A DNA stretch of 64,000 nucleotides, from the NCBI GenBank assembly GCA_963783055.1, contig CAWAMB010000004.1, forward strand, positions 40,442-104,441, written 5' to 3'. Source of the DNA: an uncultured Chloroflexia bacterium (GTDB lineage: Bacteria > Chloroflexota > Limnocylindria > Limnocylindrales > CSP1-4). This document shows positions 36,044 through 54,369 of the stretch, one piece after another. The notes below the pieces were generated by a model. That model worked only from the letters and a program-made list of their open reading frames with translations, made no database searches and was not told the DNA's origin. Within the stretch, counting starts at the first letter, position 1, and each line of letters opens with the position of its first letter. The translations under genes were made by a program, and so were the position numbers.

Positions 36044-36562
36044 CTACCGACGCGTGCTCGTGCCCAGCTTGACGAGCAGCTCGTCCAGCTGGTCGAACGT
36101 CTCGGAATTCCAGCTCGTCGCCCCGGAAGCGACCGCGTCGTCCAGCGCCTCCTTCGAGGGGTAGAGGTCGTGGACGACCAACCGTGTCCGGCCGTGATCC
36201 TCCTCGAAGGTCGCGGTCGTCACGACGTGCCCGCCATCGTCCTCCTCGTTCGTCCAGACCAGGCGCGATGGCGGCGACACCTCGAGGTAGCGGCCGAAGA
36301 ACGCCATCGGTTCCGCGGTCCCGGTGTCGAACGTGAGCCGGTAGCCGCCGCCGACGCGTGCATCGATCTCGCACGACAGAAGCGTCAGGCCCAACGACTT
36401 CGGCACCCACCACTGCCGGAACTGGTCCGCGTCGGTCCACGCCTCGAACACGCTCGGCGGCGGGCCATCGATCGTCCGGGTGACGACGAGCTCGCGCTCC
36501 GATGTCCGCTCGACCGTCGTGCGGTTCCGGGTGGCGGGCTCAGCGGCGCTTCGGGTGTTCAT
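36044..36562 (-). CDS. SRPBCC/AHSA1-family protein
   Basis: ..RELVVTRTIDGPPPSVFEAWTDADQFRQWW..GGGYRLTF..FGRYLEVSPPSRLVWT... Confidence 0.85.
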   Translation of the reverse strand: MNTRSAAEPATRNRTTVERTSERELVVTRTIDGPPPSVFEAWTDADQFRQWWVPKSLGLTLLSCEIDARVGGGYRLTFDTGTAEPMAFFGRYLEVSPPSRLVWTNEEDDGGHVVTTATFEEDHGRTRLVVHDLYPSKEALDDAVASGATSWNSETFDQLDELLVKLGTSTRR

Positions 36563-36914
36563 CGATCTGCTCCTTCCGTCGTCGCTCCGCGACGACCTGC
36601 TCCAACGCGTCGAACCGGGCGTCCCACATCCGGCGCTGCTGCTCGATCCACGTGGTCTCTTCTTCGAGCTGGCGCGGCCCGAGCCGGCAGGTCCGCACGC
36701 GCCCGAGCTTCTCGGTCGTGACGAGCCCGGCCTGCTCCAGCACCCCGACGTGCTTGCGCATGCCCGTGAGGGTCATGCGGAACGATCCGGCCAGCTCCGT
36801 GATCGACGCGTCGCCTCGTCCGAGCCGCTCCAGGACGCCCCGCCGGGTGGCGTCGGACAGCGCCGCGAACGAGACGTCGAGTCGACCATCGGAATACTGA
36901 ACCATATGGTTCAC
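36540..36914 (-). CDS. ArsR/SmtB-family HTH transcriptional regulator
   Basis: ..FAALSDATRRGVLERLGRGDASITELAGSFRMTLTGMRKHVGVLEQAGLV... Starts at GTG 36914 or the in-frame ATG 36905. Confidence 0.85.
   Translation of the reverse strand: MNHMVQYSDGRLDVSFAALSDATRRGVLERLGRGDASITELAGSFRMTLTGMRKHVGVLEQAGLVTTEKLGRVRTCRLGPRQLEEETTWIEQQRRMWDARFDALEQVVAERRRKEQIDEHPKRR
36898..36913. promoter_or_regulatory. perfect 16-bp palindrome overlapping the ArsR start codon, preceded by a TATAAA -10-like box
   Basis: TGAACCATATGGTTCA at 36898-36913. TATAAA lies on the minus strand at 36915-36920, which suggests a leaderless transcript starting at ATG 36905. Confidence 0.55.
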
Positions 36915-38187: not shown

Positions 38188-38850
38188 ATGCCCAGCCTGA
38201 CCCGACGGGAGCGGTCCCGCGCCACCCACTGGAAGATCGTCGAGGCGTCGCACCGCCTGTTCTCGACCCAGGGCTATGCCGCCACGACGATGGCGCAGGT
38301 CGCCGAGGCTGCCGGCGTCGCCGTCCAGACGGTCTATTTCGTGTTCCACACAAAGCCGGCCCTGCTCGCTCGGGCCATCGACTTCGCCGTGATGGGCCGG
38401 GATGACCCGCGTCCTCCTGAGGAGCAGCCGTGGTACCTGGCGATGACCGATGCCTCGGGGATCGCTGAGGCGGTTCGCCACCTGGTGACCGGTGTCGGCT
38501 CGATCATGCCAAGGGTGATCCCGCTCAATCTCGCGGCGCGGGCGAGCGACGATCCCGACCTGGCCAGGGTCATGGCGGAATCCGAGGCCTGGCGGGCCGA
38601 TGGCTACCGGGTCATCCTCGAGATCCTCCGGAAGAAGGCACCGCTGCGCGATGGGCTCGATCCGGAGAGAGCAGCGCACCTGCTGCTCTTCTACGTTGGC
38701 GAGGACGCCTACCACGTCCTCGTCGGGACGTACGGTTGGCCGCACGACGACTGGGTGGATTGGTGCGTCGCTACGCTCCTGGATCAGGTATTCGGTCTGG
38801 CCACGCCATCCGAAGGCGTCCTCTCGGGCACTCGGCCGACGAACCACTGA
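38188..38850 (+). CDS. TetR-family transcriptional regulator
   Basis: ATG 38188. ..RATHWKIVEASHRLFSTQGYAATTMAQVAEAAGVAVQTVYFVFHTKPALL... Confidence 0.85.
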   Translation: MPSLTRRERSRATHWKIVEASHRLFSTQGYAATTMAQVAEAAGVAVQTVYFVFHTKPALLARAIDFAVMGRDDPRPPEEQPWYLAMTDASGIAEAVRHLVTGVGSIMPRVIPLNLAARASDDPDLARVMAESEAWRADGYRVILEILRKKAPLRDGLDPERAAHLLLFYVGEDAYHVLVGTYGWPHDDWVDWCVATLLDQVFGLATPSEGVLSGTRPTNH

Positions 38851-38853
38851 CGG

Positions 38854-38888
38854 TCGCCGGCCCCGAGATCGTGGGTGTCCGACTGACC
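38854..38888 (+). repeat. partial copy (A) of the tRNA-Arg downstream flank
   Basis: 30/35 identical to 45688-45722 (TCGCCGGCCCCGAGAT..TGGG.GT.CG.CTGACC), in direct orientation. Confidence 0.7.
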
Positions 38889-39877: not shown

Positions 39878-39983
39878 CTATGGGAGGTTGGAGGACGATC
39901 GTGGCGATCAGGCTGACGCCGGCGGCGCCCACGGCCTAGCAGTCGCGCTGCCCGCAAAGGGTTGAACTGGCGCGCCCGACAGG
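39878..39983 (+). repeat. degenerate copy (C) of the tRNA-Arg flank ending in a perfect 16-bp copy of the tRNA 3' end
   Basis: 39968-39983 TGGCGCGCCCGACAGG equals 45775-45790. The upstream ~90 bp share the blocks GGCTGAC, GGCGGC, CCCACGG and TGCCCG with 45699-45774. Confidence 0.75.
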
Positions 39984-40486: not shown

Positions 40487-43400
40487 CTACGGAGCGCTGC
40501 CGACCTTGACGGCGCTCACGAGGTGGCGGTCGGTGAGCCCGCCGGTGCCGGCGGAGAAGCCGACGAGGACGTTGGCCGGCAGGCTGACCGCGGTGTCGAG
40601 GACCTGGACCCCGGCGACCTTGACCTGGAGGCGACCGCCCACGACGGCGACCTCGACCTGGCGGGGCCCGCCGTTGTGGAGGGTCGGGATGGCCGTGCTG
40701 GTCGAGAGGTAGTGGAGGGCGTTCGCGGTGCCGGAGTCGGCGATGCCCGCGAAGTTGGCCGACGGGTCGCCGATGCCCGAGTCGTACGTGTCGAGGGCGA
40801 CCGCGTAGCCGGCCAGGCCGCCGAACCCCAGGCCCGAGCCGGTCGCGCCGAGGGCTCCCCCGCCGGCCGCCGGGTTGAGCAGCAGCAGGGCCATCCCGTC
40901 GGCGCCCGTGCCGGTGCCGATGTCGGCGGTGAAGCAGACGCGCAGGGCGGCGCTGGCCTGGGCGGTCGTGTAGATGACGCTGCCGGCCTGGTTCGTGGTC
41001 GCGGGGGTCAACTGGACCGCCGTGCCCGAGACCGTGGCCGAGCCGTTGCGCTGCCAGCCGGCGGCGGTCACCGCGGGCAGCGTGTCGGGACAGCTCGACG
41101 AAGGGGCGACGCCGGACCCGGACAGGGGCACGGTGATCGCGCCCTGGCCGGTGTTGGGCGTCACGACGAGGCTGCCTGACGCCGCCCCGACCGCGGTCGG
41201 TGCGAAGCGGACCACCTGGGTCACCGAGCCGCCGGCCGGGATGACCGTGCCGGTCGTGAGGACCGGGGCGACGGCGCTGAAGGGCGCGGCCGGGAGGGTC
41301 ACCGCCGAGAGGGTCAGGCTGCTCGCGCCGGTGTTGGAGAGGACGACGTTGGCGGTGGTGCTGGTGCCGGTCGTGAGCGAGCCGAAGGCGACACTCGTGG
41401 GGGCAACGGCGAGGAACGCCGGCGCGGGGGCGGCGGCGCTGCCGACCTTGACGGCGCTCACGAGGTGGCGGTCGGTGAGCCCGCCGGTGCCGGCGGAGAA
41501 GCCGACGAGGACGTTGGCCGGCAGGCTGACCGCGGTGTCGAGGACCTGGACCCCGGCGACCTTGACCTGGAGGCGACCGCCCACGACGGCGACCTCGACC
41601 TGGCGGGGCCCGCCGTTGTGGAGGGTCGGGATGGCCGTGCTGGTCGAGAGGTAGTGGAGGGCGTTCGCGGTGCCGGAGTCGGCGATGCCCGCGAAGTTGG
41701 CCGACGGGTCGCCGATGCCCGAGTCGTACGTGTCGAGGGCGACCGCGTAGCCGGCCAGGCCGCCGAACCCCAGGCCCGAGCCGGTCGCGCCGAGGGCTCC
41801 CCCGCCGGCCGCCGGGTTGAGCAGCAGCAGGGCCATCCCGTCGGCGCCCGTGCCGGTGCCGATGTCGGCGGTGAAGCAGACGCGCAGGGCGGCGCTGGCC
41901 TGGGCGGTCGTGTAGATGACGCTGCCGGCCTGGTTCGTGGTCGCGGGGGTCAACTGGACCGCCGTGCCCGAGACCGTGGCCGAGCCGTTGCGCTGCCAGC
42001 CGGCGGCGGTCACCGCGGGCAGCGTGTCGGGACAGCTCGACGAAGGGGCGACGCCGGACCCGGACAGGGGCACGGTGATCGCGCCCTGGCCGGTGTTGGG
42101 CGTCACGACGAGGCTGCCTGACGCCGCCCCGACCGCGGTCGGTGCGAAGCGGACCACCTGGGTCACCGAGCCGCCGGCCGGGATGACCGTGCCGGTCGTG
42201 AGGACCGGGGCGACGGCGCTGAAGGGCGCGGCCGGGAGGGTCACCGCCGAGAGGGTCAGGCTGCTCGCGCCGGTGTTGGAGAGGACGACGTTGGCGGTGG
42301 TGCTGGTGCCGGTCGTGAGCGAGCCGAAGGCGACACTCGTGGGGGCAACGGCGAGGAACGCCGGCGCGGGGGCGGCGGCGCTGCCGACCTTGACGGCGCT
42401 CACGAGGTGGCGGTCGGTGAGCCCGCCGGTGCCGGCGGAGAAGCCGACGAGGACGTTGGCCGGCAGGCTGACCGCGGTGTCGAGGACCTGGACCCCGGCG
42501 ACCTTGACCTGGAGGCGACCGCCCACGACGGCGACCTCGACCTGGCGGGGCCCGCCGTTGTGGAGGGTCGGGATGGCCGTGCTGGTCGAGAGGTAGTGGA
42601 GGGCGTTCGCGGTGCCGGAGTCGGCGATGCCCGCGAAGTTGGCCGACGGGTCGCCGATGCCCGAGTCGTACGTGTCGAGGGCGACCGCGTAGCCGGCCAG
42701 GCCGCCGAACCCCAGGCCCGAGCCGGTCGCGCCGAGGGCTCCCCCGCCGGCCGCCGGGTTGAGCAGCAGCAGGGCCATCCCGTCGGCGCCCGTGCCGGTG
42801 CCGATGTCGGCGGTGAAGCAGACGCGCAGGGCGGCGCTGGCCTGGGCGGTCGTGTAGATGACGCTGCCGGCCTGGTTCGTGGTCGCGGGGGTCAACTGGA
42901 CCGCCGTGCCCGAGACCGTGGCCGAGCCGTTGCGCTGCCAGCCGGCGGCGGTCACCGCGGGCAGCGTGTCGGGACAGCTCGACGGGTTTGTCGGCACGAA
43001 GGTGGCCGTGTACGTCGCGGCCGTCGCGGGCGCGCTGATCGTGTGGGATCGCGTCCCGCCATCCGACCACGACGAGAACGTGTACGAGGTCCCCCCACCC
43101 GTCACCTGGGGAGAATCGACGGAGATCGAGTTGCTCGAGCCGACGATGAACGTCTTCGTGAACGGTGTCGCTTGCGCGTTGGCGCCACCGACGATCACGC
43201 TGAGCCCGGCGGGATTCGTTCCGAAGGTGAGGTCGACCGTCTTCGGGTCGATCCTCGTCGAGGCCGTCGCGGTGGCGCCCGACGAATCCGCGACCGTGGC
43301 CTTCAGCTCGAGGTACGACGGGTACTCGTGGTCTGGCGCATCAAAGGCCCCGGATGCCGTGTCCGGGAAGCTCGTGATGGTGTGGGTATGACAGATCGCC

Positions 43401-45322
43401 CCCTGGCAGTGATGGAGGATGAGGTCCCAGTCGATCTGGCTGGAGATGTTGCCGTCCTGCGGGTCGGTGGCCGTCCCGGAGAAGGTGATGTGCTCCCCGA
43501 CCGACCACTCGAGCGACGCCTGCGGCGCGTCGATCGTGATCCCGGGCAGGTTGTTATCGACCTGGATGAGCACGGAATCCGTGTCGGTCTCGCCGCCCGG
43601 GTCCGTGACCCGGAGTCGCGCCCGCTTCTGCCCGGTCGTCTGGTACGTGAATGAGGCCGTGGAGTCCGTTCCATCGTCGAACGAGCCGTCGTCGTCCAGG
43701 TCCCACGCGTAGGTGAGCGGATGGCCCTCGGGGTCCGTCGAGCCCTGGCTGTCGAACGAGACGGTCAGGGGCGTAGGCCCACTCAGCGGGCTGGCCGCCA
43801 TGCTCGCGGTCGGGGGGAGGTTGACGGTGTAGCGGATGCGTCGGATGCCACCGAGGAAGTCCACGTAGTAGAGCGCGCCGTCGGGTCCCATCTTGAGGCC
43901 GATCGGGTTCGGGGCCGCCGGCTGGAATGCCTGGATGGTGGCGGCATCGGGCACGCCGTTCGAGCCGGCCAGCATCACCCAGATGCAGTTCCGCGAGTAG
44001 TCCGCCCCGAACAGCGCGTCTTGATAGACCGCCGGGAACGCCGTGCCGGTGTAGAAGGCAAGGCCCGTGATCGAGGAGCTGACCGGCGCCGGTGGAGCGG
44101 CCGGCGGGCAGTCGTCGGGCGGCGCGATGTCGAGCGAGTGACTGTAGGTGAAGAACGGCGAGCGCACGGCATTCGACTGACCGTAGAGCGTCTCGCAGAT
44201 GTCGAGATCCAGCGAGTCGTAGCCGGGCTGTCGATCCGTTCCCTCGTAGCACGGCCAGCCGAAGTTCACGACACTGGCCGGGGTCGAATCGGTGATCCGA
44301 TCGACCTCTTCCCAGTTGTTCCAGCCGACGTCGCCGGCCCAGATCTCGTCGGTGCCCGGCCGGAACGTGAACCGGAAGGGGTTGCGGAGGCCTTCGGCGA
44401 TGATCCGGCGGGCGTTGGCATCGGCGTTGCCGAACAAGGGGTTGCCGGACAGCCCGGCGCCGGTGGCTGGGTCGACCCGGAGGATCGCGCCGTCGAGCGT
44501 GACCGGGTCGCCGCTGGTGCGAAGGTCCTGCGATCGGAGTGCCCCGCCGGCGGCCGTCGGCGGAGTCTGCGTCCCTCCGACTCCGCCCGGGGGATCGCCG
44601 CAGGGGTTCAGCGGGCTGCCCTTCTGGCCGTAGTCGGCGACGTTGAAGTCGGCGCCGTCACCGCCGCTGACATAGAGGGCGCCGTCGGGACCGAACTCCA
44701 GGTCGCCGATCGAGTGGCTTGGGTACTGCTGGCACCAGTCCTCGATCAGCACGGTCTCGCCGGTCGACACGTTGCCGCTCGCGGTGAGACGCGAGACACG
44801 ACTGGAAACCACGCACCCATTGGCCGTGGCGCCGGGCGGCGTCGGACAGCCATCGGACGTCTGGTCGGCGGTCCCCCAGCGCGGCGCCGTGCCGCCGATC
44901 GCGGCGTCGAACGTGTAGGCGACGTAGACGTACGGCGTCGCCGGAAAGTTCGGGTCGAGGGCCAGCCCGAGCAGGCCCCGGTCCCAGAAGTTGTGGACCT
45001 GGGTGCGGAGATCCGCAAACACGGTCGGCGTCGTGTCCGAGAGGTTGTCGAAGACAAGCACGCGGCCACTCTTTTCGGTGACGAAGACGCGGCCGTCCGA
45101 GGCGAACTCGAGGTTGGTGGGGTTGGTCAGTCCGCTGAAGACGCTCTCGTCGACGAAGTTGGAAGGCAGGGGTGCCTGGGCTGCCATACCGGCTTCACGC
45201 GCGGGCGTGACCTCTGTCGCCAGCGAGGCCGGCGCAAGCGGGGCGAGAGCCACCAAGGCGAGTGCGAGCGCGATGGCCGGCGACGCCCCACGCCTGCGCA
45301 TGGTTGACCCGCTGTCGGGCAT
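40487..45322 (-). CDS. secreted multidomain protein: PQQ-dependent sugar dehydrogenase-like beta-propeller, PKD, a beta-rich module and three lectin (ConA-like) modules with Ig-like spacers
   Basis: Single intact frame.
- Signal peptide: MRRRGASPAIALALALVALAPLAPASLA; start at 45322 or 45301.
- Propeller motifs: NLEFASDGRVFVTEKSGRV, RGLLGLALDPNF, GDLEFGPDGALYVSGGDG, LRNPFRFTFRP, NFGWPCYEG.
- PKD: LTVSFDSQGSTDPEG..YAWDLDDDG.
- Lectin-like units: GADGMALLLLN..GSGLGFGGLAGYAVALDTYDSG. Confidence 0.9.
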   Translation of the reverse strand: MPDSGSTMRRRGASPAIALALALVALAPLAPASLATEVTPAREAGMAAQAPLPSNFVDESVFSGLTNPTNLEFASDGRVFVTEKSGRVLVFDNLSDTTPTVFADLRTQVHNFWDRGLLGLALDPNFPATPYVYVAYTFDAAIGGTAPRWGTADQTSDGCPTPPGATANGCVVSSRVSRLTASGNVSTGETVLIEDWCQQYPSHSIGDLEFGPDGALYVSGGDGADFNVADYGQKGSPLNPCGDPPGGVGGTQTPPTAAGGALRSQDLRTSGDPVTLDGAILRVDPATGAGLSGNPLFGNADANARRIIAEGLRNPFRFTFRPGTDEIWAGDVGWNNWEEVDRITDSTPASVVNFGWPCYEGTDRQPGYDSLDLDICETLYGQSNAVRSPFFTYSHSLDIAPPDDCPPAAPPAPVSSSITGLAFYTGTAFPAVYQDALFGADYSRNCIWVMLAGSNGVPDAATIQAFQPAAPNPIGLKMGPDGALYYVDFLGGIRRIRYTVNLPPTASMAASPLSGPTPLTVSFDSQGSTDPEGHPLTYAWDLDDDGSFDDGTDSTASFTYQTTGQKRARLRVTDPGGETDTDSVLIQVDNNLPGITIDAPQASLEWSVGEHITFSGTATDPQDGNISSQIDWDLILHHCQGAICHTHTITSFPDTASGAFDAPDHEYPSYLELKATVADSSGATATASTRIDPKTVDLTFGTNPAGLSVIVGGANAQATPFTKTFIVGSSNSISVDSPQVTGGGTSYTFSSWSDGGTRSHTISAPATAATYTATFVPTNPSSCPDTLPAVTAAGWQRNGSATVSGTAVQLTPATTNQAGSVIYTTAQASAALRVCFTADIGTGTGADGMALLLLNPAAGGGALGATGSGLGFGGLAGYAVALDTYDSGIGDPSANFAGIADSGTANALHYLSTSTAIPTLHNGGPRQVEVAVVGGRLQVKVAGVQVLDTAVSLPANVLVGFSAGTGGLTDRHLVSAVKVGSAAAPAPAFLAVAPTSVAFGSLTTGTSTTANVVLSNTGASSLTLSAVTLPAAPFSAVAPVLTTGTVIPAGGSVTQVVRFAPTAVGAASGSLVVTPNTGQGAITVPLSGSGVAPSSSCPDTLPAVTAAGWQRNGSATVSGTAVQLTPATTNQAGSVIYTTAQASAALRVCFTADIGTGTGADGMALLLLNPAAGGGALGATGSGLGFGGLAGYAVALDTYDSGIGDPSANFAGIADSGTANALHYLSTSTAIPTLHNGGPRQVEVAVVGGRLQVKVAGVQVLDTAVSLPANVLVGFSAGTGGLTDRHLVSAVKVGSAAAPAPAFLAVAPTSVAFGSLTTGTSTTANVVLSNTGASSLTLSAVTLPAAPFSAVAPVLTTGTVIPAGGSVTQVVRFAPTAVGAASGSLVVTPNTGQGAITVPLSGSGVAPSSSCPDTLPAVTAAGWQRNGSATVSGTAVQLTPATTNQAGSVIYTTAQASAALRVCFTADIGTGTGADGMALLLLNPAAGGGALGATGSGLGFGGLAGYAVALDTYDSGIGDPSANFAGIADSGTANALHYLSTSTAIPTLHNGGPRQVEVAVVGGRLQVKVAGVQVLDTAVSLPANVLVGFSAGTGGLTDRHLVSAVKVGSAP
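40494..42984. repeat. perfect tandem repeat, 942-bp unit x 2.64
   Basis: Units 40494-41435, 41436-42377 and 42378-42984. Compared line by line, I found no mismatches. Plus-strand ORFs 40974-41654 and 41916-42596 translate identically. Confidence 0.95.
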
Positions 45323-45687
45323 CGCCGTGTGCCGTCCCCTTCCTCGACGGGAGCCCCCAGCACCATCCGGCGCATGACCCGGCCCGAGGCCGCAGTATGA
45401 CCCATCCGAAGTGCACCGGAGTGTCAATTTCCGATGCTGATGCGCGTGGGCACCGGGAAACACGTGGCATCGACGCTTCGCCCGAGCGGACCGATCGTCG
45501 CGGTGCTTCCGTAGCCGGCGCCCGCTCGCCGCGCCACCGCTGCGTGGGCCTTTCGCATTCGACGGTAAGGCACCACTTGCAGAGCGTGCGCACGAGTGGC
45601 TCCGCGCCCCGGGCGAGTCGCTCGAAGCGCCCGAGAAGTCGAAGGAGAATGCAGACGTGCTCCACGCCATCTACGACCGAATCACGC

Positions 45688-45790
45688 TCGCCGGCCCCGA
45701 GATTTTGGGAGTTCGGCTGACCCAGGCGGCCTACGCCCACGGATTCGCGCTAGCAATGCCCGAGAAGGTGGTTATGGCGCGCCCGACAGG
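45688..45790 (+). repeat. reference copy (B) of the flank repeat, contiguous with the tRNA-Arg 3' end
   Basis: See copies A and C. It includes the 16-bp core at 45775-45790. Confidence 0.7.
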
Positions 45791-45850
45791 ATTCGAACCT
45801 GCGACCTTCGGCTCCGGAGGCCGACGCTCTATCCACTGAGCTACAGGCGC
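45775..45850 (-). tRNA. tRNA-Arg (anticodon CCG)
   Basis: 76-nt cloverleaf: GCGCCTG-TA-GCTC-AGTGGATA-GAGC-G-TCGGC-CTCCGGA-GCCGA-AGGTC-GCAGG-TTCGAAT-CCTGT-CGGGCGC-G-CCA. The CCA is encoded. Confidence 0.92.
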
Positions 45851-46013
45851 GCGGACGCCGATGATACCGGCTCAGGTCCGGATGGAGCGTCGGACCGGGC
45901 GACCGCGCTCCGACGGCTCGCGCCGTTAGACGTCGCGTCGCCAACAGTCGTTCGCCGACGTGTCTTCGCGTCGCGATGTCACCTTTTGCGCCAATCTCGC
46001 CCCTTTGTCAGTG

Positions 46014-46496
46014 ATGGACAGCGCAATGGCCGTGGTCGAACCGCATGAGAGCGTCGAAGCCGTCTATCGGGCCGACGCCGAGCGGCTGTGGCGCGCGATC
46101 TACGCCTTCGCCGGCGACGCCGAGATCGCCAGCGACGCGGTGGCCGAAGCCTTCGCCCAGGTCCTCAACCGCGGGGCGGCCGTCCGTGACCCCGCTGCCT
46201 GGACCTGGCGGACCTCGTTCCGGATCGCTGCCGGCGCCCTGAAAGCACGCGGTGCGGAAGGGCAGGCGCCCGCCGCCCACGGCGACCACCTCGACCGGTA
46301 CGGCGATCCGGACCTCCTCGCAGCCCTACGCCAGCTCCCCGACGCCCAGCGCGCCGCGGTGATCCTCTTCTACTACGCCGACCTCCCGATCAGTGGCATC
46401 GCGGCGCGCCTCGGATCGAACCGCGTCGCGGTGCGCGCCAACCTGAGCCGCGGCAGGAGCCGCCTTCGCCAGCTTCTGGGTGACCACGATGAATGA
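46014..46496 (+). CDS. ECF-type sigma-70 family RNA polymerase sigma factor
   Basis: Region 2 and region 4 signatures: ..AERLWRAIYAFAGDAEIASDAVAEAF.. and ..LPDAQRAAVILFYYADLPISGIAARLGSNRVAVRANLSRGRSRL. The start could be 46014, 46011 or 45960. Confidence 0.8.
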   Translation: MDSAMAVVEPHESVEAVYRADAERLWRAIYAFAGDAEIASDAVAEAFAQVLNRGAAVRDPAAWTWRTSFRIAAGALKARGAEGQAPAAHGDHLDRYGDPDLLAALRQLPDAQRAAVILFYYADLPISGIAARLGSNRVAVRANLSRGRSRLRQLLGDHDE

Positions 46497-47886
46497 CCTT
46501 CGCACGCGGTTCGCCACGCTCGACGCCGTGCCGGTGCCCGACATCTGGAGCGAGGTCGAGCGGCGCCTCGACGCGCTCGGGACCGGCGCGCCGACGGGCC
46601 GCCTCCAAGTCGTTCGGCCCGCATGGCGAGGACCGCGAGCCGACGAAGTCGGACGCGATCGGGGAACGACGCGGAACCGGCGAACGATCGCGTTGCTGGT
46701 GGCCGCCGCGCTCACGGTCGCGCTCATCGGCGGCGCCCTCGCCGTGGGCTCAGGGTTCGTCCGTCTACCCTCCGTCGTGGCGCCCTCGCCGGACGCGACG
46801 ATCACGCAGCCACCGGCGCCGACGTCGACACCTGCCGAGCCGTCGCCAAGCCCCGTGATCTCGCCGACGCCGTCCCTGATCGCGTTCCCGACTCTGCTCC
46901 CGCAGGCTCGCGCAGTCCGGCTGACATCGGACACGGCCGGGTGGCTCGCGACAACGGACGCGATCTATCGGACCGCCGACACGGGCCGGACGTGGGCCGA
47001 GGTTCGAGAGCAGGGGTTCACGACGACATCGGTGGCCGCGTTTCTCGACGACGACACGATGTTCGTCGCGTCGGGCGGCTCGCCGGCGACGATCACCGCC
47101 ACCCACGACGGGGGCGCCTCCTGGGTCGAGGTCACGCTGGACGTCGGGCCGATCAGCGGCGGGCCGGTCTTCTCGTTCCGGACCTCGCTCGTCGGGTTCG
47201 CGACGTTCTACGACCCGGCCGGCACGGCCCCGATCCGCGTCTACGGAACGGTGGACGGCGGGGCCACCTGGACGGGGCCGAAGAACGGCGACGTGCCGCC
47301 GATGGCGGGCAGCTTCGACAAGCTCAGCGACTCACGCGGCGGGTTCCTCTGGCAGAGCGCCGGGAAGTTCGACGGCCAGCCGTTCGACGATCGGTTCTTC
47401 CTGTCGGCCGATGGCGGCGCGGCATGGACGCAGCACCGCTTCCCGACCGGGCCGCTCGGCTCACGGAACACGCTGAAGACCATCGTGGACGTCGTCCAGG
47501 ACGATGGCGGTCCGATCACGATCGCCATCATGGCCGGGGGCCCCGCGTCGATCTTCGAGAGCACCGACGATCCGGCGTCGTGGCGACTGGTCCGCACCCT
47601 GCCCGACGGCGACGCGCAGCTTCTGTCCGCGCAGACCTGGGTGGTCACGAGCGGCAACGAGTTCCGATCCACGGTCGATGCCGGTGCGCATTGGCGGACC
47701 ACGGCGACCCCGATCGGCTACCGCGAACGGCCGAGCTTCGCGACGCCGGACACGGCCTGGGTGACCGTCACCTGCAATCCCGACTCGATCCTGCCCCAGG
47801 ACCGGCATTGCGATGGGACGACCAAGGAAGGCATGTTCCTGCTCACGCGCGATGGCGGCGCGACCTGGACGAGAGTCGACGAGTGA
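46489..47886 (+). CDS. single-pass membrane protein with an extracytoplasmic BNR/Ycf48-like propeller (putative anti-sigma factor)
   Basis: ATG 46489 overlaps the sigma stop (ATGA). It has a TM helix (IALLVAAALTVALIGGALAV), a Pro-rich linker and repeated DxGxxW motifs (DTGRTW, DGGASW, DGGATW, DGGAAW, DAGAHW, DGGATW). Confidence 0.7.
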   Translation: MNDLRTRFATLDAVPVPDIWSEVERRLDALGTGAPTGRLQVVRPAWRGPRADEVGRDRGTTRNRRTIALLVAAALTVALIGGALAVGSGFVRLPSVVAPSPDATITQPPAPTSTPAEPSPSPVISPTPSLIAFPTLLPQARAVRLTSDTAGWLATTDAIYRTADTGRTWAEVREQGFTTTSVAAFLDDDTMFVASGGSPATITATHDGGASWVEVTLDVGPISGGPVFSFRTSLVGFATFYDPAGTAPIRVYGTVDGGATWTGPKNGDVPPMAGSFDKLSDSRGGFLWQSAGKFDGQPFDDRFFLSADGGAAWTQHRFPTGPLGSRNTLKTIVDVVQDDGGPITIAIMAGGPASIFESTDDPASWRLVRTLPDGDAQLLSAQTWVVTSGNEFRSTVDAGAHWRTTATPIGYRERPSFATPDTAWVTVTCNPDSILPQDRHCDGTTKEGMFLLTRDGGATWTRVDE

Positions 47887-47918
47887 CGCCGACCCGTCGC
47901 ATCGTGCAAGGAGGAACC

Positions 47919-48800
47919 GTGATCCGTCGGCCGGTGTCCCTGTTGATCGCTTCGGTCCTGATCGTTGCCGCCTGCGGCGGGTCGGGGGCCTCGTCGAACC
48001 TCGATCCGATCGGTTCCGCGCCAGCGTCGGCGCCGACGGCGAGCGACACTGCGTCGCCCAGCCCTCTGGCGACCGCAAGCGCCGGCGCTCTGCCGTCGGT
48101 CGACCCGGTCCCGAGCGGCTCACAGAGCGGGCGCGTCGCCGTCGACAAGGACGGGCGGCAGCTCGCCTATGTGTGCTGGGGCGAGGGCAGCCCGACCGTG
48201 ATCCTGGAGACGGGCGGCGACAACATCGAGGAGTGGAGTGGATCGGGCGTCGTCCGCCGGCTCGCCGGCCTGACGCGCGTGTGCACGTACGATCGCGCTG
48301 GGACCGGCTCGAGTGACCCTCCGCCGTACGAGAAGCGGGACGCGGACGACGTCGTGCGCGACCTGAAGGCCCTGCTCGCAGCGGCCCACTTGGATGGGCC
48401 GTATGTGCTCGTCGGCCTGTCGTTCGGCGGGATGGTCGTGACCCACTACGCGGAAAGCGAGCCCGACCACGTCGTCGGCGTTGTCGTCCTCGACACGCCG
48501 GCGCCGTCGGCGACCTTCACGCCGGAGAGCGAACCCGAGCTCGTCTGGGATTACCCCGGCAACACCGAGCGGCTCGACGTCGTCGGCGGCTTCGAGAATC
48601 GCTTTGCCAAGGATCCCCCGAAGTTTGACCTGCCCCTGCTCATCGTCACCCCGGTTCCCGGCGAGGCGAGCGCCGCCGATGAGAGCTTCTGGCTTCAGAC
48701 CAGCCCGCAGTCCCGACAGATCGCGGTCCAATCCGGCGGAGGGGCGACGGGGCGCGCGTGCGCCAACGAGATCGCCGCGTTCGTCGAAGGCCTCGGCTGA
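47919..48800 (+). CDS. alpha/beta hydrolase lipoprotein
   Basis: GTG 47919 after an AAGGAGGA RBS. Lipobox LIVAAC. ..YVLVGLSFGGMVV.. is the nucleophile elbow. Confidence 0.8.
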   Translation: MIRRPVSLLIASVLIVAACGGSGASSNLDPIGSAPASAPTASDTASPSPLATASAGALPSVDPVPSGSQSGRVAVDKDGRQLAYVCWGEGSPTVILETGGDNIEEWSGSGVVRRLAGLTRVCTYDRAGTGSSDPPPYEKRDADDVVRDLKALLAAAHLDGPYVLVGLSFGGMVVTHYAESEPDHVVGVVVLDTPAPSATFTPESEPELVWDYPGNTERLDVVGGFENRFAKDPPKFDLPLLIVTPVPGEASAADESFWLQTSPQSRQIAVQSGGGATGRACANEIAAFVEGLG

Positions 48801-48822
48801 CGGGGCGGTCGCGGGGACCTCG

Positions 48823-49692
48823 CTACGGCCCGACCGTGACCGACGCGGTGCACGGGAACGTGCCGCCGGCCGCCCGACTCTGGGTGGCGATCGTGTAGTT
48901 GCCGTGCCCGTCCAGCATCGTGACGCTGCCGCTGAACCCGGCATCGCGCCACATTCGGGGGGCGCTCGACTTCTTCTGGCCGACGAGCTTCGGCGCGACG
49001 CACTGCTCGGGCGTTGGCGTTGGCGCCACCGTCGGACGCGGGGTCACCCTCGGCGTCGGCGCAGGCGTGCGGGCCGGAGTCGGTGCGGGCGTGGCCCTTG
49101 GGGTCCGGTTCGGGCGCGGTGTCGATTCACCGACCGTGTCGGGCGACGAGGTTCTGGTCGCGGTTGGTCGTTGGGGCTTTGGCGACGGCGTCGGGCCGGC
49201 GACCGGGTCCGGCGACGAAGCGGCCCGCGACGCGCTCGGCAGCACGGCGATCGCTCCCGGGGTCCCGGTGGCGCTATCGACCCCACCCGTCGGGCGGAAC
49301 GGACCAGCGAGCGCGAATCCGACGACCGACAGCGCGAAGATCGTGACGATCACGGCAATGGCGCCAGACCGGTCCGTCCGACGTCCGCCGGGTCCCGGGC
49401 GAGCGGCGGCGGACCCGGCCACGCCCTGAGGTCCGCCACTGACCGGCCGGCTCGGCGCACCCCGACCGGACCGGAACGCGGCGACGATCGACGCTCCTGC
49501 CGGCGAGAAGCCACAGCCTGGACACGCTCCGGAAGCCTTCGCCCAGCACCGCTGGCAGGCGTGGACGTTGCAGGACGAGCAGCGCGTCAGTCCGACGCGC
49601 CGGAGGGAGGTCGCCTCGCCGGCCACGTCCCCGCAGCGCTCGCAGTACTGGCTGTCCGCGCCCGGCGGACGGCTGGCGACCGGCCGGGTCAT
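48823..49692 (-). CDS. zinc-ribbon / TM / Pro-Thr-rich linker / PASTA-like domain protein
   Basis: ATG 49692. CERCG..CSSC..CQRC..CPGC cluster, a TM helix (AIAVIVTIFALSVVGFALAG), and a C-terminal ..CVAPKLVGQKKSSAPRMWRDAGF..VTVGP that resembles a PASTA module. Confidence 0.55.
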   Translation of the reverse strand: MTRPVASRPPGADSQYCERCGDVAGEATSLRRVGLTRCSSCNVHACQRCWAKASGACPGCGFSPAGASIVAAFRSGRGAPSRPVSGGPQGVAGSAAARPGPGGRRTDRSGAIAVIVTIFALSVVGFALAGPFRPTGGVDSATGTPGAIAVLPSASRAASSPDPVAGPTPSPKPQRPTATRTSSPDTVGESTPRPNRTPRATPAPTPARTPAPTPRVTPRPTVAPTPTPEQCVAPKLVGQKKSSAPRMWRDAGFSGSVTMLDGHGNYTIATQSRAAGGTFPCTASVTVGP

Positions 49693-50036
49693 GGGGCTCG
49701 CCGGCGCGGGCAGGGAAGCGGGAGCCCGGCATGTCGGGCTCGACCGTTCGCAAGGGTGCTTTGGCCGACCTCCCCGGGACGCCACCGAACCGAAGCACAG
49801 CGCACGGCACCACCCTACTCCACTCACCTGCCTGCGCGGGCGGTCCGGTCAGCTCCTGTGGGTCAGCTGTGGTGCCTCCGAACACCGCCTCGACCCGGAG
49901 CCAGGACCCCGGTTGCACGGAATGACCGGCGGCGACTCGAGGAAATACCGCCTGGGCCTGGTGGAACCGCGACCGAGTCGGTCTAGGGCAACGGCCGAAC
50001 GTGTGCAACGCCGGCATCGTCGTCGGTCAGCCCCGC

Positions 50037-50078
50037 GGAGAAAAAGTTCGAGGCCGGGTCCCGAAAGACCCGGCCTCG
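50037..50078 (-). terminator. intrinsic terminator (minus strand)
   Basis: An 11-12 bp stem, (C)GAGGCCGGGTC/GACCCGGCCTC(G), with a 6-nt loop, followed on the minus strand by GAACUUUUUCUCC. Confidence 0.8.
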
Positions 50079-50360
50079 ATGCTGTCCCGGTGAAAGTCCG
50101 GCGAACCGGACACCCGCCACGCGCCAAGGGCATCTATCACGTCGGCTGTACCGACTACCCTGACCCTACCTACCCATGACCTTGGTTCTGGGGCAGCTTG
50201 GCTGACAAGCAGCGCAGTCGCCATGCTACTCGTCGGCCGCTCGAAATCCAAGAGTTTTGATGCAGGTCGCGATGTAAATTCCTTAACGTTCGTTGCGCGC
50301 GCATATCGGCGGTCGGCGAAATCGCCGCCTTCGAGCGGGCCGTCGTGCGTGAATCGGGCG
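50079..50360 (-). ncRNA. candidate structured 3'UTR or sRNA downstream of ppiB (family unassigned)
   Basis: ~280 nt with lower GC and no credible ORF. It contains a UUCG-tetraloop hairpin (GUCCGG-UUCG-CCGGAC), a GUCGG-UACAG-CCGAC hairpin and a 9-bp long-range pairing (CCGCUCGAA/UUCGAGCGG). It ends at the terminator. Confidence 0.3.
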
Positions 50361-50846
50361 TCAGCCCTCGTGAATCGTGATGCCGGTGATCGCCACCGGC
50401 TCGTCCGGCAGGTCACGCGAGTTGCGCGCTGCGGACGCGATCACGTCGACCACGTCCAACCCCTTGGTGACCTGGCCGAAGATCGTGTAGTTCTTCGGCA
50501 GGCCGTAGTCAGCGTGCATGATGAAGAACTGCGACCCGTTGGTGTTCGGCCCGGAATTCGCCATGGCCAGCGTGCCCCGGTTGTAGGACCCGGTCACCGG
50601 CTCGTCCGCGAACTTGTAGCCGGGTCCGCCCGTGCCGACCCGCCCGACGTTGAGCGACGCCTTCTTGCCGTGCTCGCCGTCGCCGCCCTGGATCATGAAA
50701 CCCGGGATGACGCGGTGGAAGATCACGTCGTCGTAGAAGCCCTTCTTGGCCAGGTCGAGGAAGTTCTGGGCCGTCTTGGGCGCGTCGTTCGTGAACAGGT
50801 CGACGTCGATGTCGCCCTTCTCGGTGGCAATCGTGAGGCTGGTCAT
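50361..50846 (-). CDS. ppiB: cyclophilin-type peptidyl-prolyl cis-trans isomerase
   Basis: 161 aa: ..NFLDLAKKGFYDDVIFHRVIPGFMIQGGD..GGPGYKFADE..RGTLAMANSGPNTNGSQFFI... AGGAGA RBS. Confidence 0.9.
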   Translation of the reverse strand: MTSLTIATEKGDIDVDLFTNDAPKTAQNFLDLAKKGFYDDVIFHRVIPGFMIQGGDGEHGKKASLNVGRVGTGGPGYKFADEPVTGSYNRGTLAMANSGPNTNGSQFFIMHADYGLPKNYTIFGQVTKGLDVVDVIASAARNSRDLPDEPVAITGITIHEG

Positions 50847-50872
50847 GGACTCTCCTGACTGGTGCGACGTGG

Positions 50873-51776
50873 CTAGGGAGTGGTCGAGCTCGACGGGCCC
50901 GCCGAGCTCGCTGCGGAGGGTGGCGGTGCGGATGACGACGGACGTGGCGTCGGCTGGCCGATCGTGACCTTGGTCATCACGACCGGATCGGCCGGGCTCT
51001 CCTGACCGTTGGCCGCGGTGTAGATGGCGTCGACGACATCCATCCCGACGGTGACCGAGCCGATGATCTGGTAGGTATTGGCGCTCTCGAGGACCGCCTG
51101 ATCCTTGTCGTCGAGGACGATGAAGAACTGCGAGCCCGACGGAGTTCGGCGCCGCGGTCCGGGCCATCGCCACGGTTCCGCGGACGTATTTGGCCGTGAC
51201 GGTCTCGTCCTGGATCTCGTAGCCGGGACCGCCGCCCCCGGTGCCATCCGGGTCGCCGCCCTGGATCACGAACGGCGTTCCATCCTGGAGCGTCGCGACC
51301 CGGTGGAAGACGATCCCGTCGTAGTAGCCGCAACCGACGAGTGCAGCGAAGTTGCCGACCGCGATCGGCGACAGGTCCGCATCGAGCGTGATCTGGATCG
51401 AGCCCTTCTCGGTTTCCATCGTCACCACGGACACCATGCCGGCGGCTGCCGCGGGCGGCTGGGACGTCGGGCAATTCACGCCGCGGCCCGCGGGGGAGGC
51501 GCCGGGTGAGGAGTTGGGACGGGCGCTCGAGCCACCGCCACCGCCTCCGCCGAACTGGATCGCGCCGCCGGCGAGGGCCGCCCCGATCGCGAACACGACG
51601 ACGCCGATGACGGCGAGCCAGGCGGTTGGAATGCCGCCGCTCGACGACGACCCGCCCCTGGTCGGCCCGGCCTTCGCCCGCTGGGTCGCAATCCCGCTCG
51701 CGCGGGCGGCGCCACCCTGACGGGCCCGCTGCTTCTTGGACGAGCGCGGGCGGGGTCGGTTCGAATCGGAGCTCAA
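50873..51776 (-). CDS. membrane-anchored cyclophilin-type PPIase, apparent +1 insertion at 51135-51137
   Basis: The TTG start overlaps the hisA-like stop (TTGA), with GGAGG 7 nt upstream. It has a basic N-terminus, a TM helix (WLAVIGVVVFAIGAALAGG), a Gly run and a cyclophilin core (..FHRVATLQDGTPFVIQGGDP..TVAMARTAAPNSVG). The frame then shifts to SQFFIVLDD..IGSVTVGMDVVDAI... Confidence 0.8.
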
Positions 51777-52474
51777 GCGGCTGCCTCCAGTGCGGCGCCG
51801 AAGTCGATGGCGCCCGACATCAGGGTCTCGCCGAGGATGATGCCCGCGATCCCCGCGTCGCGCAGGCGACGGATGCCGTCGAGGTCGGTCACACCACCGG
51901 CGACGAGGACGTCGATGTCGGCACGGGCGGCGAGCGGGCCGAGGACGGCGAGGTCCGGGGCATGGCCGCCGTGGGCCAGCACGAACCGGCTGACACCACG
52001 CTCGGCGAGCTCGGCGACGACGCCGGCGAGGGTCGGCGACCCGGTCCGCTGCCACGGAAACGCGGACAGCCGCTCGGGTCGTGGGTCCAGCCCGACTGCG
52101 AGCCATGCCCCGGCCACCTCGAGTCCGGCCGCGAGCGCTTCCGGATCGTCGGCAATGGCCATCGAGGTCACGACCCGCGTCGCGCCGGCCGCGAAGGCGA
52201 GCCGGATCCCGTCGGCGCTGTCGACGCCGCCGGCGACCTGGATCGGGATGGCGATCCGGGACGCGATCGTCCCGACGGCCTCCAGATTGCCGGGCACGCC
52301 GGTCCGTGCCCCGTCGAAGTCGACCAGGTGGATCAACCGGGCGCCACGCTCGACGAAGCTCTCCGCGATCCGGTCCGGCCGGTCCGTTGGCGCGCCGACG
52401 CCGGTCGAGGCGCCGGGCCAGAAGACGACGCGGGATCGGCCGCGATCGAGGTCGATCGAAGGGATGACCTGCAC
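51773..52474 (-). CDS. HisA/HisF-family (beta/alpha)8-barrel protein
   Basis: MQVIPSIDLDRGRSRVV..LIHLVDFDGARTG..IPIQVAGGV..VLVAGGVTDLDGIRRL..GIILGETL. No other his genes are nearby. Confidence 0.75.
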   Translation of the reverse strand: MQVIPSIDLDRGRSRVVFWPGASTGVGAPTDRPDRIAESFVERGARLIHLVDFDGARTGVPGNLEAVGTIASRIAIPIQVAGGVDSADGIRLAFAAGATRVVTSMAIADDPEALAAGLEVAGAWLAVGLDPRPERLSAFPWQRTGSPTLAGVVAELAERGVSRFVLAHGGHAPDLAVLGPLAARADIDVLVAGGVTDLDGIRRLRDAGIAGIILGETLMSGAIDFGAALEAAA

Positions 52475-52475
52475 G

Positions 52476-54239
52476 TCAGGCGCGCGCGGCCCGACTGGCG
52501 CCGCTGGCCGAGCCGGCTCCGGCGCCGTCCGCCCCGCGCTCCGCCCCGCCGGCGGTCCCGGCGGCGATCCGCTCGGACAGGATCCGGCGATGGAAGCTGA
52601 TCGGCAGGGAGCCGTTGTTGAGCAGCGTGTCGTGGAAGTCGCGCAGCGAGAACGAGCTGCCGAGCCGCGTCTGCTCGTCCGCCCGGAGCCCGAGCAGGAG
52701 CACCTTCCCGAGCAGGTAGGAGAGCTGGTACGTCGGGGTATACGTGTAGCGCCGGACCTCCGCCCGGGCGTTTGCCTCCTCGAAGCTCGTCTGCTCGACG
52801 AGGAACTTGATCGCCTCGTCGACGGCGACCTCGCCGCGATGCATCCGCACGTCGAGGATGATCCGGCAGGCCCGCCAGATCGCGTCGGTGTGCATGTTGA
52901 GCCGGAAGTTGGCGGCTGCGTCGAAGCCCTGCTCGCGCATCATCTGCTCGGAGTACATCCCCCAACCCTCGACGAACTCGGGGGCGTCGGTCATCAGCCG
53001 GGTCAGCGACGGGTGGCTGTTCGCGACGTGGAGCTGAAGGTGATGACCTGGGTATGCCTCGTGGATGCTCGTGTTGCTGATCGAGCTGAAGTTGTGCTCG
53101 AGCATCGCGTTCGCGTCGTTGCCGACCGACGGCGTGACGATGTAGATGCCCTTCGGCTTCGGGTCGAACTTGGGCGGCGAGAAGTACGCCGCGAACGGGA
53201 TGACGTTGCGGAGGTACTCGGGCGTCTCGACGACGTCGATCCGCTCGTCGGCGGGGACGGTGACGATGTCGTGGTCGATCAGGTGCTGACGGGCGCGGAC
53301 CATGACGTCGCGGTAGGCGTCGAGCGCCTCCTCGAACGTCGCCGGGTGGTCGGCCTTGAGGCGGCCGATGACCTCGGCCTCGGTCGCGTGGTCGTCGACC
53401 TCGGACGCCGCCCGGATCCGGGCGGCCTTGTTCGTCTCGAGCTGGTCCTCGCCGATCTCGAGGATGGCGTCGGCATCGAGGCCGTCGAAGGCGCGCAGGC
53501 TCACCAGCTCGTCGTAGTGCTCGCGCCCGAGGGCCCAGTCGTCGGTCCCCGTGGCGAGCGATTCCTTGAGCCAGGCGCCGTACTCGCTGATCGCCGTCCG
53601 GGCCGTGTCGGCGGCGGCGGCCAGGCGCCGTCGCTCGGCGTCGGGCAGGACCGCTCCGGCGGTGACGATCTCGTCGAAGAACGACGGCAGGTCGGCCGCC
53701 GACTCGATCTCGAGTGCCTGCCAACTCTGGACCTGCGGCACGACGGCCCGGTCGCGCGACTGCTCGAGCCACGTCGGGACGGCCTCGAGGCGGCTGGCGA
53801 TCGACTCCAGCCGCTCCGGCAGCGGGGCGAAGTCCTGGGCGAAGAGGAGGAACAGCGCGTCGCCCACGACATCGAGCGCCGTCGAGCGGCGCTCCCAGGT
53901 CCGGACGACCTCGGTGTCGAAGTTCTGGCGGCGGACGTTGTGGATCTCGAGATCGCGCTCGAACCGGACCTCGGGCGACAGGCCGGCTTCGTCGAGGGCC
54001 TCGATCGCGGCCAGGTGGTCCTTGTCGGCCGCCAGCTCGGCCAGGACCGCGTCGCGCGTCCCGTCGCCGAGCCGGTCGTCCTCGGTGTGGATGCCGATGT
54101 AGGTCCCGACGAGCGGGTTGTCGGCCAGGATCCGGCGGAAGCGGGCCTCGACCAGGTCGTAGAAGCGATCGTCGAGCGGGCCGGGTTCGGCCGCGACGTC
54201 GGGCCGGGTCAGGACGACGTCCTGGAGGGTGTCGGTCAC
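52476..54239 (-). CDS. DUF885-family protein (metallopeptidase-like HEAxPGHH motif)
   Basis: GTG 54239 after an AGGAGA RBS. ..IHEAYPGHHLQL..EGWGMYSEQMM..YTYTPTYQLSY... Confidence 0.85.
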   Translation of the reverse strand: MTDTLQDVVLTRPDVAAEPGPLDDRFYDLVEARFRRILADNPLVGTYIGIHTEDDRLGDGTRDAVLAELAADKDHLAAIEALDEAGLSPEVRFERDLEIHNVRRQNFDTEVVRTWERRSTALDVVGDALFLLFAQDFAPLPERLESIASRLEAVPTWLEQSRDRAVVPQVQSWQALEIESAADLPSFFDEIVTAGAVLPDAERRRLAAAADTARTAISEYGAWLKESLATGTDDWALGREHYDELVSLRAFDGLDADAILEIGEDQLETNKAARIRAASEVDDHATEAEVIGRLKADHPATFEEALDAYRDVMVRARQHLIDHDIVTVPADERIDVVETPEYLRNVIPFAAYFSPPKFDPKPKGIYIVTPSVGNDANAMLEHNFSSISNTSIHEAYPGHHLQLHVANSHPSLTRLMTDAPEFVEGWGMYSEQMMREQGFDAAANFRLNMHTDAIWRACRIILDVRMHRGEVAVDEAIKFLVEQTSFEEANARAEVRRYTYTPTYQLSYLLGKVLLLGLRADEQTRLGSSFSLRDFHDTLLNNGSLPISFHRRILSERIAAGTAGGAERGADGAGAGSASGASRAARA

Positions 54240-54369
54240 GAGGGTCTCCTGGTCGTGGGCTCGTGGCGCCGCCCGGAACGCATCCTGTCGGGCAGTGCCG
54301 CGGGACCGGGCGAGATGGGCCCGGCGCGTGGCCGTGAGTGTCGCCGATCGGGGCGGATCGTGCCAGCCG

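Follow-up and report, generated by a model that had tools for sequence, protein, structure and literature searches.

The Periscope Proteins (SasG/Aap, Rib, Sgo_0707 and CdrA) are built with long tandem runs of complete folded domains, encoded by identical or nearly identical DNA, and intragenic recombination is the standard account of such arrays (PMC8201768). The gene described here, on the minus strand at 40487-45322 of a 64,000-nucleotide (nt) stretch of DNA from an uncultured Chloroflexia bacterium (the window, hereafter), ends in an array of the same sort. Each 942-nt unit encodes one lectin module (L) and one immunoglobulin-like (Ig) module, the units are 100% identical, and repeat number appears to differ between close relatives, for which recombination within the gene is again the proposed driver. 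Both systems break the rule that adjacent domains diverge. Periscope Proteins, however, are wall- or membrane-anchored and use a rod-like stalk to project an N-terminal binding head, whereas the window protein has no anchor and its head is an enzyme-like propeller. Its repeat also includes a putative binding module, so a change in copy number would alter valency, where the Periscope repeats change reach.

Secreted enzymes with tandem carbohydrate-binding modules (CBMs) are a second point of comparison. They too connect a secreted catalytic domain to one or more glycan-binding modules through linkers or Ig-like spacers, although glycan binding is only putative for the window protein. A fungal example is the AA12 pyranose dehydrogenase, which depends on pyrroloquinoline quinone (PQQ) and carries a CBM, and multiple copies of such modules are expected to raise avidity. 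The window module differs in having an L-type lectin fold that is not a classified CBM family and in having copies that are identical at the DNA level. Prokaryotic L-type lectins (7elv, S. aureus SraP, L. lactis YwfG and A domains from Aap/SasG; PMC9999234) have the same predicted fold and keep the same aspartate of a GADG motif, and the histidine of a GGLxDxH motif is found in both ERGIC-53/VIP36 and the window module. In the window, however, several canonical metal ligands of these lectins are replaced, and the domain is present three times, each copy identical, at the C-terminal end of a propeller enzyme.

The N-terminal domain matches the six-bladed PQQ sugar dehydrogenases (sGDH, Asd/YliI, 2ism and 3a9g), with which its 'HSxG' and 'RNP' motifs align, but the window protein adds a PKD domain, an extra domain and the lectin array. 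Among soil bacteria, Chloroflexi included, six-bladed PQQ propellers occur widely, according to a paper that mentions AA12/CcPDH, cites a nine-residue PQQ signature of CcPDH and makes no mention of lectin or PKD fusions (bioRxiv 10.64898/2026.07.10.737718). Identical folded-domain repeats that vary in copy number are thus a known kind of structure in extracellular bacterial proteins, which here appears in an unusual protein context and in an uncultured soil lineage. We consider it roughly 65% probable that this locus carries a real, recently homogenised, in-frame lectin-Ig repeat, driven by recombination, on a secreted and unanchored protein of the PQQ-type sugar dehydrogenase family. A pattern known chiefly from surface-anchored proteins of cultured pathogens would then extend to secreted enzyme-lectin fusions of uncultured soil Chloroflexota, with a binding module rather than a stalk as the repeated element.

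A perfect array and its relatives

Direct string comparison gives 2.64 units of the 942-nt period without a mismatch. The units at 40494-41435 and 41436-42377 are identical (0/942 nt mismatched), the partial unit at 42378-42984 equals the first 607 nt of the unit, and every nucleotide matches the one 942 nt further on across an unbroken 1549 nt from 40494. A repeat search of the window recovered three copies, again with 942-nt spacing. Tandem Repeats Finder (TRF) did not report the array, and its longest period was 500; it missed the array because a period of 942 exceeds its maximum of 500, which is why the array was measured by direct comparison instead. The window contains no N's and has a G+C content of 70.8%, and a 2.5-kb perfect repeat cannot be a chance product. 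No further copy of L or Ig was found elsewhere in the 64-kb window by tblastn.

A preliminary description of this DNA had given the same coordinates and zero mismatch, which the direct comparison reproduces. It had also listed two plus-strand open reading frames (ORFs) of 226 amino acids (aa) at 40974-41654 and 41916-42596; both exist, and they are antisense shadows of the minus-strand gene. Translation of the ORF bears out its reading of the unit as 314 codons in frame with the gene, and each unit boundary therefore stays in frame. The array starts with TCGAGCTGTCC (Ser-Ser-Cys-Pro), immediately past an unassigned domain, and its end reads ...GGCAGCGC followed by TCCGTAG. The preliminary description was right at the protein level, where VKVGSA is followed by a proline and the stop, but it set the end three codons before the stop; the identity actually ends 4 nt before it, within the final Ala codon, so that a single Pro codon is left.

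The most informative relative is L001, a 198-kb contig (ENA sample ERZ25039492) that encodes a protein 94% identical to that of the window (P0001) and whose name, 'contig_2083', is in the style of a long-read assembler. This contig has a perfect array of its own, with a period of 1266, a run of 1878 nt and 0 mismatches, and the array starts and ends at the same points within the gene as the window array. A perfect 324-nt duplication of Ig is nested inside it, which gives the architecture L-Ig-Ig-L-Ig-Ig-L. Between the window unit and the L001 unit, 20/615 nt differ in L and 10/327 nt in Ig, whereas no differences separate the copies within either genome. Finding no difference in 1549 compared sites limits the divergence between copies to ~0.19% (95% upper bound), at most ~6% of the 3.2% divergence between the two lineages. 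The L>Ig and Ig>L junctions fall at the same residues in both, and the L-Ig-L plan is therefore older than their split.

These comparisons point to an array that has been homogenised within each lineage (concerted evolution) while copy number varied between lineages. The copies appear to have been homogenised independently since the split, and the number of Ig modules per spacer (0, 1, 2) and of L modules (1, 3) appears to have changed meanwhile. With two internally perfect lineages ~3% apart, the gene would be a clean natural case of concerted evolution inside a bacterial gene. The preliminary description had read the lack of divergence as recent amplification or gene conversion in a copy-number-variable gene and had proposed a comparison with orthologues. 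That reading fits the differences among close relatives: 3 L with 1 Ig per spacer in the window, 3 L with 2 Ig per spacer in L001, and 1 L in the locus L002, which encodes a protein of 90% identity (P0002) and has no Ig. Both flanks of L002 match those of L001 at 84-93% nt identity, so that the two are orthologous loci. The L002 contig is a k141 (MEGAHIT) assembly that runs straight through, and its single L is probably real because a repeat of higher coverage would usually break a de Bruijn assembly, not be skipped by it. A third contig, L003, from a sister sample, has the period-942 L-Ig-L plan of the window, and its second L equals the first at 216/217 nt.

More distant homologues belong to a large GSDH-PKD family, found by protein search mostly in metagenome-assembled genomes (MAGs) of Actinomycetota and Chloroflexota from soil, a minority of which have lectin and Ig modules. 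These members follow the same plan, L(-Ig1-5-L)n, and nearly always terminate in L, with copies that share 33-81% identity. For P0004, P0010 and P0011, the copies of a protein resemble one another more than they resemble those of any other protein. This pattern indicates recurrent, lineage-specific amplification of the cassette in the family, with the window clade as its youngest instance. The closest matches in a genome scan were a 2.3-kb Ca. Limnocylindrales contig (91%) and a Chloroflexota MAG (70%), with no identical record; exact look-ups of the protein from starts at 45322 and 45670 likewise gave no identical protein. No further close orthologues were found in JGI metagenome contigs, where the repeat scan gave only relatives of 37-57% identity.

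Recombination is the most likely mechanism and would fit all of the anatomy seen. The ancestral plan of the family appears to be L(-Ig(n)-L)m, with a lectin at both ends, and the L copies of the window are 615-nt perfect direct repeats around a 327-nt Ig spacer. Unequal homologous recombination, gene conversion or slipped re-pairing at replication forks between these copies could add or delete whole 942-nt (314-codon) units in frame and spread variants among the copies, and the same recombination would keep the copies identical. Contraction to a single L, as in L002, would eliminate both the Ig module and the substrate for recombination.

Synonymous divergence (dS) from the orthologues is 0.05-0.07 in the lectin and Ig modules (40494-42984) and 0.16-0.22 in the core of the gene (42985-45322), a 3-4 times lower value for the repeat (Fisher p = 2e-5). 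The G+C content at third codon positions (GC3) is 0.985 in L, 0.954 in Ig and 0.88-0.90 in the core. This pattern of low dS and high GC3 in the repeat holds for the single-L relative L002 too. GC-biased gene conversion and a more recent exchange of the 3' half of the gene are possible sources of this pattern.

The secreted protein and its modules

The features of the gene and its surroundings are collected in Table 1. The coding frame has a GC3 of 0.92, and the gene start agrees with the N-termini of two homologues (P0002 and P0003, the latter from L003). The signal peptide was recognised by eye from its basic n-region, a hydrophobic core of ~20 residues and an SLA motif, and it is kept in P0001-P0003. 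These typical features suggest that the protein is secreted.

Table 1. Positions of the array, its modules and neighbouring features in the window
Feature	Position	Strand	Evidence
Whole gene, 1611 aa: signal peptide, GSDH propeller, PKD, unassigned domain, L-Ig-L-Ig-L, stop	40487..45322	minus	ORF and translation, Pfam, NCBIfam
Signal peptide, aa 1-35 (MPDSGSTMRRRGASPAIALALALVALAPLAPASLA, then TEV)	45218..45322	minus	read from sequence
Six-bladed beta-propeller, glucose/sorbosone dehydrogenase (PQQ-type) family	43853..45163	minus	Pfam GSDH, PDB sequence matches
PKD domain	43565..43819	minus	Pfam PKD_4, collagenase PKD structures
Unassigned domain of ~190 aa (HHCQGAICHTH... motif), between PKD and array	42983..43555	minus	kept in homologues
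Perfect tandem array, period 942 nt, 2.64 units, 0 mismatches	40494..42984	minus	direct comparison and repeat search
Lectin module L1 (205 aa)	42368..42982	minus	tblastn, Pfam PF18483, model and Foldseek
Ig-like module Ig1 (109 aa, choice-of-anchor D / HYDIN-like)	42050..42376	minus	Pfam, NCBIfam, tblastn
Lectin module L2, identical to L1	41426..42040	minus	direct comparison, tblastn
Ig-like module Ig2, identical to Ig1	41108..41434	minus	direct comparison, tblastn
Lectin module L3 (202 aa; same as L1 and L2 up to ...VKVGSA), then Pro and TAG	40493..41098	minus	array-end reading, tblastn
Upstream block of ~100-140 nt that L001, L002 and L003 conserve along with the gene; presumed promoter/5' leader	45323..45464	minus	blastn boundaries, alignment
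tRNA-Arg(CCG), between the gene and a divergent ECF sigma-factor gene	45775..45850	minus	ARAGORN; Rfam 72 bits
16-nt exact direct copy of the tRNA-Arg 3' end (TGGCGCGCCCGACAGG); weak candidate att remnant	39968..39983	plus	shuffle control

Pfam and PDB sequence matches assign the N-terminal 780 residues to a GSDH beta-propeller and a PKD domain. The propeller scores 94.1 bits against Pfam GSDH (PF07995; cut-off 25), and its matches among solved structures are 2ism, 3a9g, sGDH (1c9u) and HHIP, although these sequence matches are weak (best E = 6e-16). Its motifs 'PSHSIGD' and 'GLRNPFR' align to 2ism, and we take them to be the catalytic His and the PQQ-contacting Arg-Asn of the GSDH family. The PKD domain scores 50 bits against Pfam PKD_4 (cut-off 27) and matches the PKD structures of collagenases. 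The domain of ~190 aa that follows it in the window protein has no Pfam match.

The preliminary description had called each unit one lectin and one Ig-like module, and Pfam, NCBIfam and an AlphaFold model searched with Foldseek agree. Three stretches of the protein match Pfam Lectin_L-type_dom (PF18483) with 162.2 bits against a cut-off of 78.3, and PF03388 and PF00139 also exceed their cut-offs for L. Two stretches match the NCBIfam choice-of-anchor D family (NF012200) with 69.6 bits against a cut-off of 45, and Ig scores 65.4 bits against the HYDIN/VesB-like family of Pfam (PF22544; cut-off 25.5). The AlphaFold (AF2) model of one L-Ig unit, computed from an alignment of 16 L-Ig units, is all-beta with a predicted local distance difference test (pLDDT) score of 91.6 that dips to ~75 at the linker between L and Ig, so that the repeat units begin and end where domains do. 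The top Foldseek match of L is the legume-lectin domain of Methanocaldococcus jannaschii (7elv), with a template modelling (TM) score of 0.80, a root-mean-square deviation of 2.4 A and E = 5e-11, followed by SraP, VIP36, ERGIC-53, YwfG and pea lectin. The model thus confirms the predicted beta-sandwich fold of L-type lectins for the L module. D67 (GADG), D103 (LDT) and H192 (GGLxDxH) are invariant across 16 diverse units, and H192 aligns with the GGLADDH histidine of ERGIC-53. The position of the sugar-binding Asn has Ser in the HMMER alignment to 7elv. Carbohydrate binding by the L modules is a reasonable expectation from these features.

The C-terminus of the window protein, ...LVSAVKVGSAP-stop, has no LPXTG or other sorting motif, no transmembrane or hydrophobic segment and no other anchor. 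An anchor is likewise absent from the C-termini of P0001 and P0002, and the close relatives end in ...VKVGSAP/GP. The 'adhesin-type' label of the preliminary description does not suit a protein with an enzyme-like N-terminal half (GSDH and PKD) and an unanchored C-terminus, and we reject it for this gene; the array looks more like tandem CBMs on a secreted enzyme. Four distant homologues (P0004, P0035, P0054 and P0111) have a hydrophobic segment and a basic tail after the last L, and some of them have an extra L-Ig inserted between the PKD and unassigned domains. Part of the family is thus probably membrane-anchored at the C-terminus, unlike the window protein.

By analogy with tandem CBMs, the array would vary how many putative glycan-binding modules the secreted enzyme carries, from 1 in L002 to 3 in the window and L001, with the Ig domains serving as spacers. 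The lectin count would set how avidly the N-terminal enzyme is retained on a surface of polysaccharide or glycan. Provided that its lectins recognise a defined glycan, the family would supply natural 1-, 3- and up to 6-valent forms with which to study how avidity targets PQQ-type oxidoreductases.

Alternative explanations

Several points weigh against a homogenised, recombination-driven repeat on a glycan-directed enzyme. The relatives used for copy number (90-94% identical) are all metagenome contigs rather than strains, and their loci are not all syntenic. The L003 contig stops inside its array, in the second L, and carries indels. The canonical Mn/Ca ligands of legume lectins are partly replaced in the metal loop, which reads AVALDTYDSGIGDPSANFAGIAD in the window and VAVEVDTWLNDFDAPATTDHIAIDV in 7elv; in the HMMER alignment, Glu is changed to Leu/Ala, Asn to Ser and His to Phe. 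Of these ligands, the Asp of LDT (D103) alone remains, alongside a 'DPxxNF' motif that belongs to this family. A bacterial L-type lectin fold need not bind carbohydrate, and the folds of staphylococci bind in a non-canonical way and were inactive on glycan arrays (PMC9999234). The score of the propeller against the TIGR03606 subfamily (41 bits; cut-off 434.55) is far too low for membership, and PQQ-dependent catalysis is a property that we infer from sequence. Finally, if the window comes from a short-read graph assembly, then its copy number and zero divergence could be products of how a loop was resolved.

This last point leads to the alternative that survives best, an assembly artefact, which we nonetheless regard as unlikely. 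The genome would then have an L-Ig-L cycle or a single L, the graph loop would have been traversed an arbitrary number of times, and both the 2.64 units and their identity would have been made by the assembler. A collapsed de Bruijn cycle would yield just such perfect identity, and related contigs do break at the repeat: to the end of L003 in its second L can be added L005, a k141 contig of the Chloroflexota MAG TY_HY_2_bin.42 (70% identity), which stops ~130 nt (43 aa) into the first L. Such an end typically marks a repeat boundary in short-read graphs and may mean that the lectin copies of this genome, too, are nearly identical. The protein from L003 (P0003) is truncated by a frameshift, a 1-nt insertion at nt 2433 of the gene (locus ~12434) that lies in the first lectin copy and not the second. 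Two further small indels occur in L003, which is likely a noisy, low-coverage long-read contig. On the other hand, L001 is an independent contig from another sample and has a perfect array with the same end points, and its nested structure, two L-Ig-Ig units and a final L, could not be produced by simple loop traversal of the window sequence. The window contig crosses the array with >20 kb on either side and keeps the reading frame, and the family-wide L(-Ig-L)n plan shows that lectin-Ig arrays are biological. The existence of such arrays is secure because of the differently structured perfect array of L001 and this family-wide plan; the copy number of the window is given as assembled. The breaking or collapse of the relatives' contigs exactly at the lectin array is also a warning for metagenome assemblies.

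A one-off, very recent duplication in each lineage from a minimal ancestor, with neither continuing conversion nor copy-number turnover, is quite improbable. Zero divergence would be compatible with a single recent event, and just three or four related contigs can be compared. However, this explanation needs independent recent events in at least two lineages (a period of 942 in one; 1266 and the nested 324 in the other) in addition to loss or absence in L002, and even a minimal L-Ig-L ancestor has two L copies that already need homogenisation. Turnover by recombination is the simpler account.

A Periscope-type stalk or adhesin, in which a rod of variable length holds a functional head away from the cell surface, is very unlikely. 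In its favour, the Periscope signature consists of folded-domain repeats that are highly identical as DNA and vary in copy number (PMC8201768), and in the four distant homologues the hydrophobic segment and basic tail would place the array between membrane and enzyme. However, the window protein and its close relatives end without an anchor of any sort, the repeated unit contains a globular putative ligand-binding domain rather than rod-forming Ig domains alone, and the head is enzyme-like rather than an adhesin domain. A pseudogene or junk DNA is rejected, with an intact frame and ratios of nonsynonymous to synonymous divergence (dN/dS) below 1 (0.58 for L and 0.28 for Ig).

The upstream block and the tRNA-Arg region

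The region that the window has in common with its close relatives is the gene and a short upstream block. At 40488-45464, the gene and 100-140 nt upstream of it are 92-94% nt identical to the copies in L001/L002 and L003. This homology begins 100-140 nt before the ATG and does not extend past the stop codon, and the surroundings of the gene differ among the three genomic contexts. The flanks of L003 are unrelated to those of the window, and possible flank orthologues between the window and L001 are 56% (ADH) and 63.5% (AHSA1) identical as proteins.

The tRNA-Arg lies 450 nt upstream of the gene. The best database match of the neighbouring BNR protein (71%) lies on a contig, L085 (JGI 3300043667), that is syntenic with 45961-54618 of the window at 78-85% nt identity. 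In L085, a GGDEF gene is directly upstream of the sigma-factor gene, and the GSDH-lectin gene is absent. The window gene thus sits beside a tRNA as an insertion that a syntenic relative lacks. Taken together, these features of the gene and its flanks suggest that a promoter-plus-gene unit was exchanged horizontally or relocated into a variable region adjacent to the tRNA. The 16-nt copy of the tRNA 3' end lies ~500 nt past the stop codon, so that the tRNA-Arg and its copy bracket this gene only; the shuffle control makes the copy a weak signal, as 6/200 shuffled tRNAs gave a 16-nt match somewhere in the window. No integrase was found among the ORFs at 33.4-47.9 kb, which encode GGDEF, MBL, HTH_20, cyclase, TetR, FkbM, sigma-factor and BNR proteins. 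A classical integrase-bearing genomic island is rejected, given the missing integrase and the weak attachment (att)-like repeat.

A broader proposal would combine this mobility with the array: a promoter-plus-gene cassette, horizontally exchanged beside tRNA-Arg, in which recombination turns the lectin array into a 'valency dial' whose copy number sets how firmly the enzyme is retained on a glycan. We think this combination improbable. The glycan surface might in that case be the envelope of the producer itself, and the array would then act as a non-covalent anchor of variable length and avidity, Periscope-like but without the covalent attachment.

Scans for promoter and terminator consensus sequences were empty, with no match to the sigma-70 consensus in the upstream block, and an Rfam scan found nothing besides the tRNA. 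The block does contain, in the stretch at 45380-45460 of the window (minus strand; ~9870-9990 of L001), a palindrome, GGTGCGCAGACGCACC, that is perfect in L002 and L003, has one mismatch in L001 and is degenerate in the window. It is followed by TTGAAC/TTGACA ... CATACT, and together these elements could be an operator plus promoter.

L085 has its tRNA-Arg elsewhere (3996-4076). A partial copy of the 5' half of tRNA-Arg in the same contig (5668-5726) flanks an HTH_20-AHSA1 gene pair, and this pair is inverted in the window at 36062-36913. The tRNA region thus appears to be a hot spot of rearrangement. The window also contains a 50-nt direct repeat with 80% identity, at 38839-38888 (the end of the TetR gene) and 45673-45722 (beside the 3' end of tRNA-Arg), which may be the remnant of a duplicated gene end left by rearrangement.

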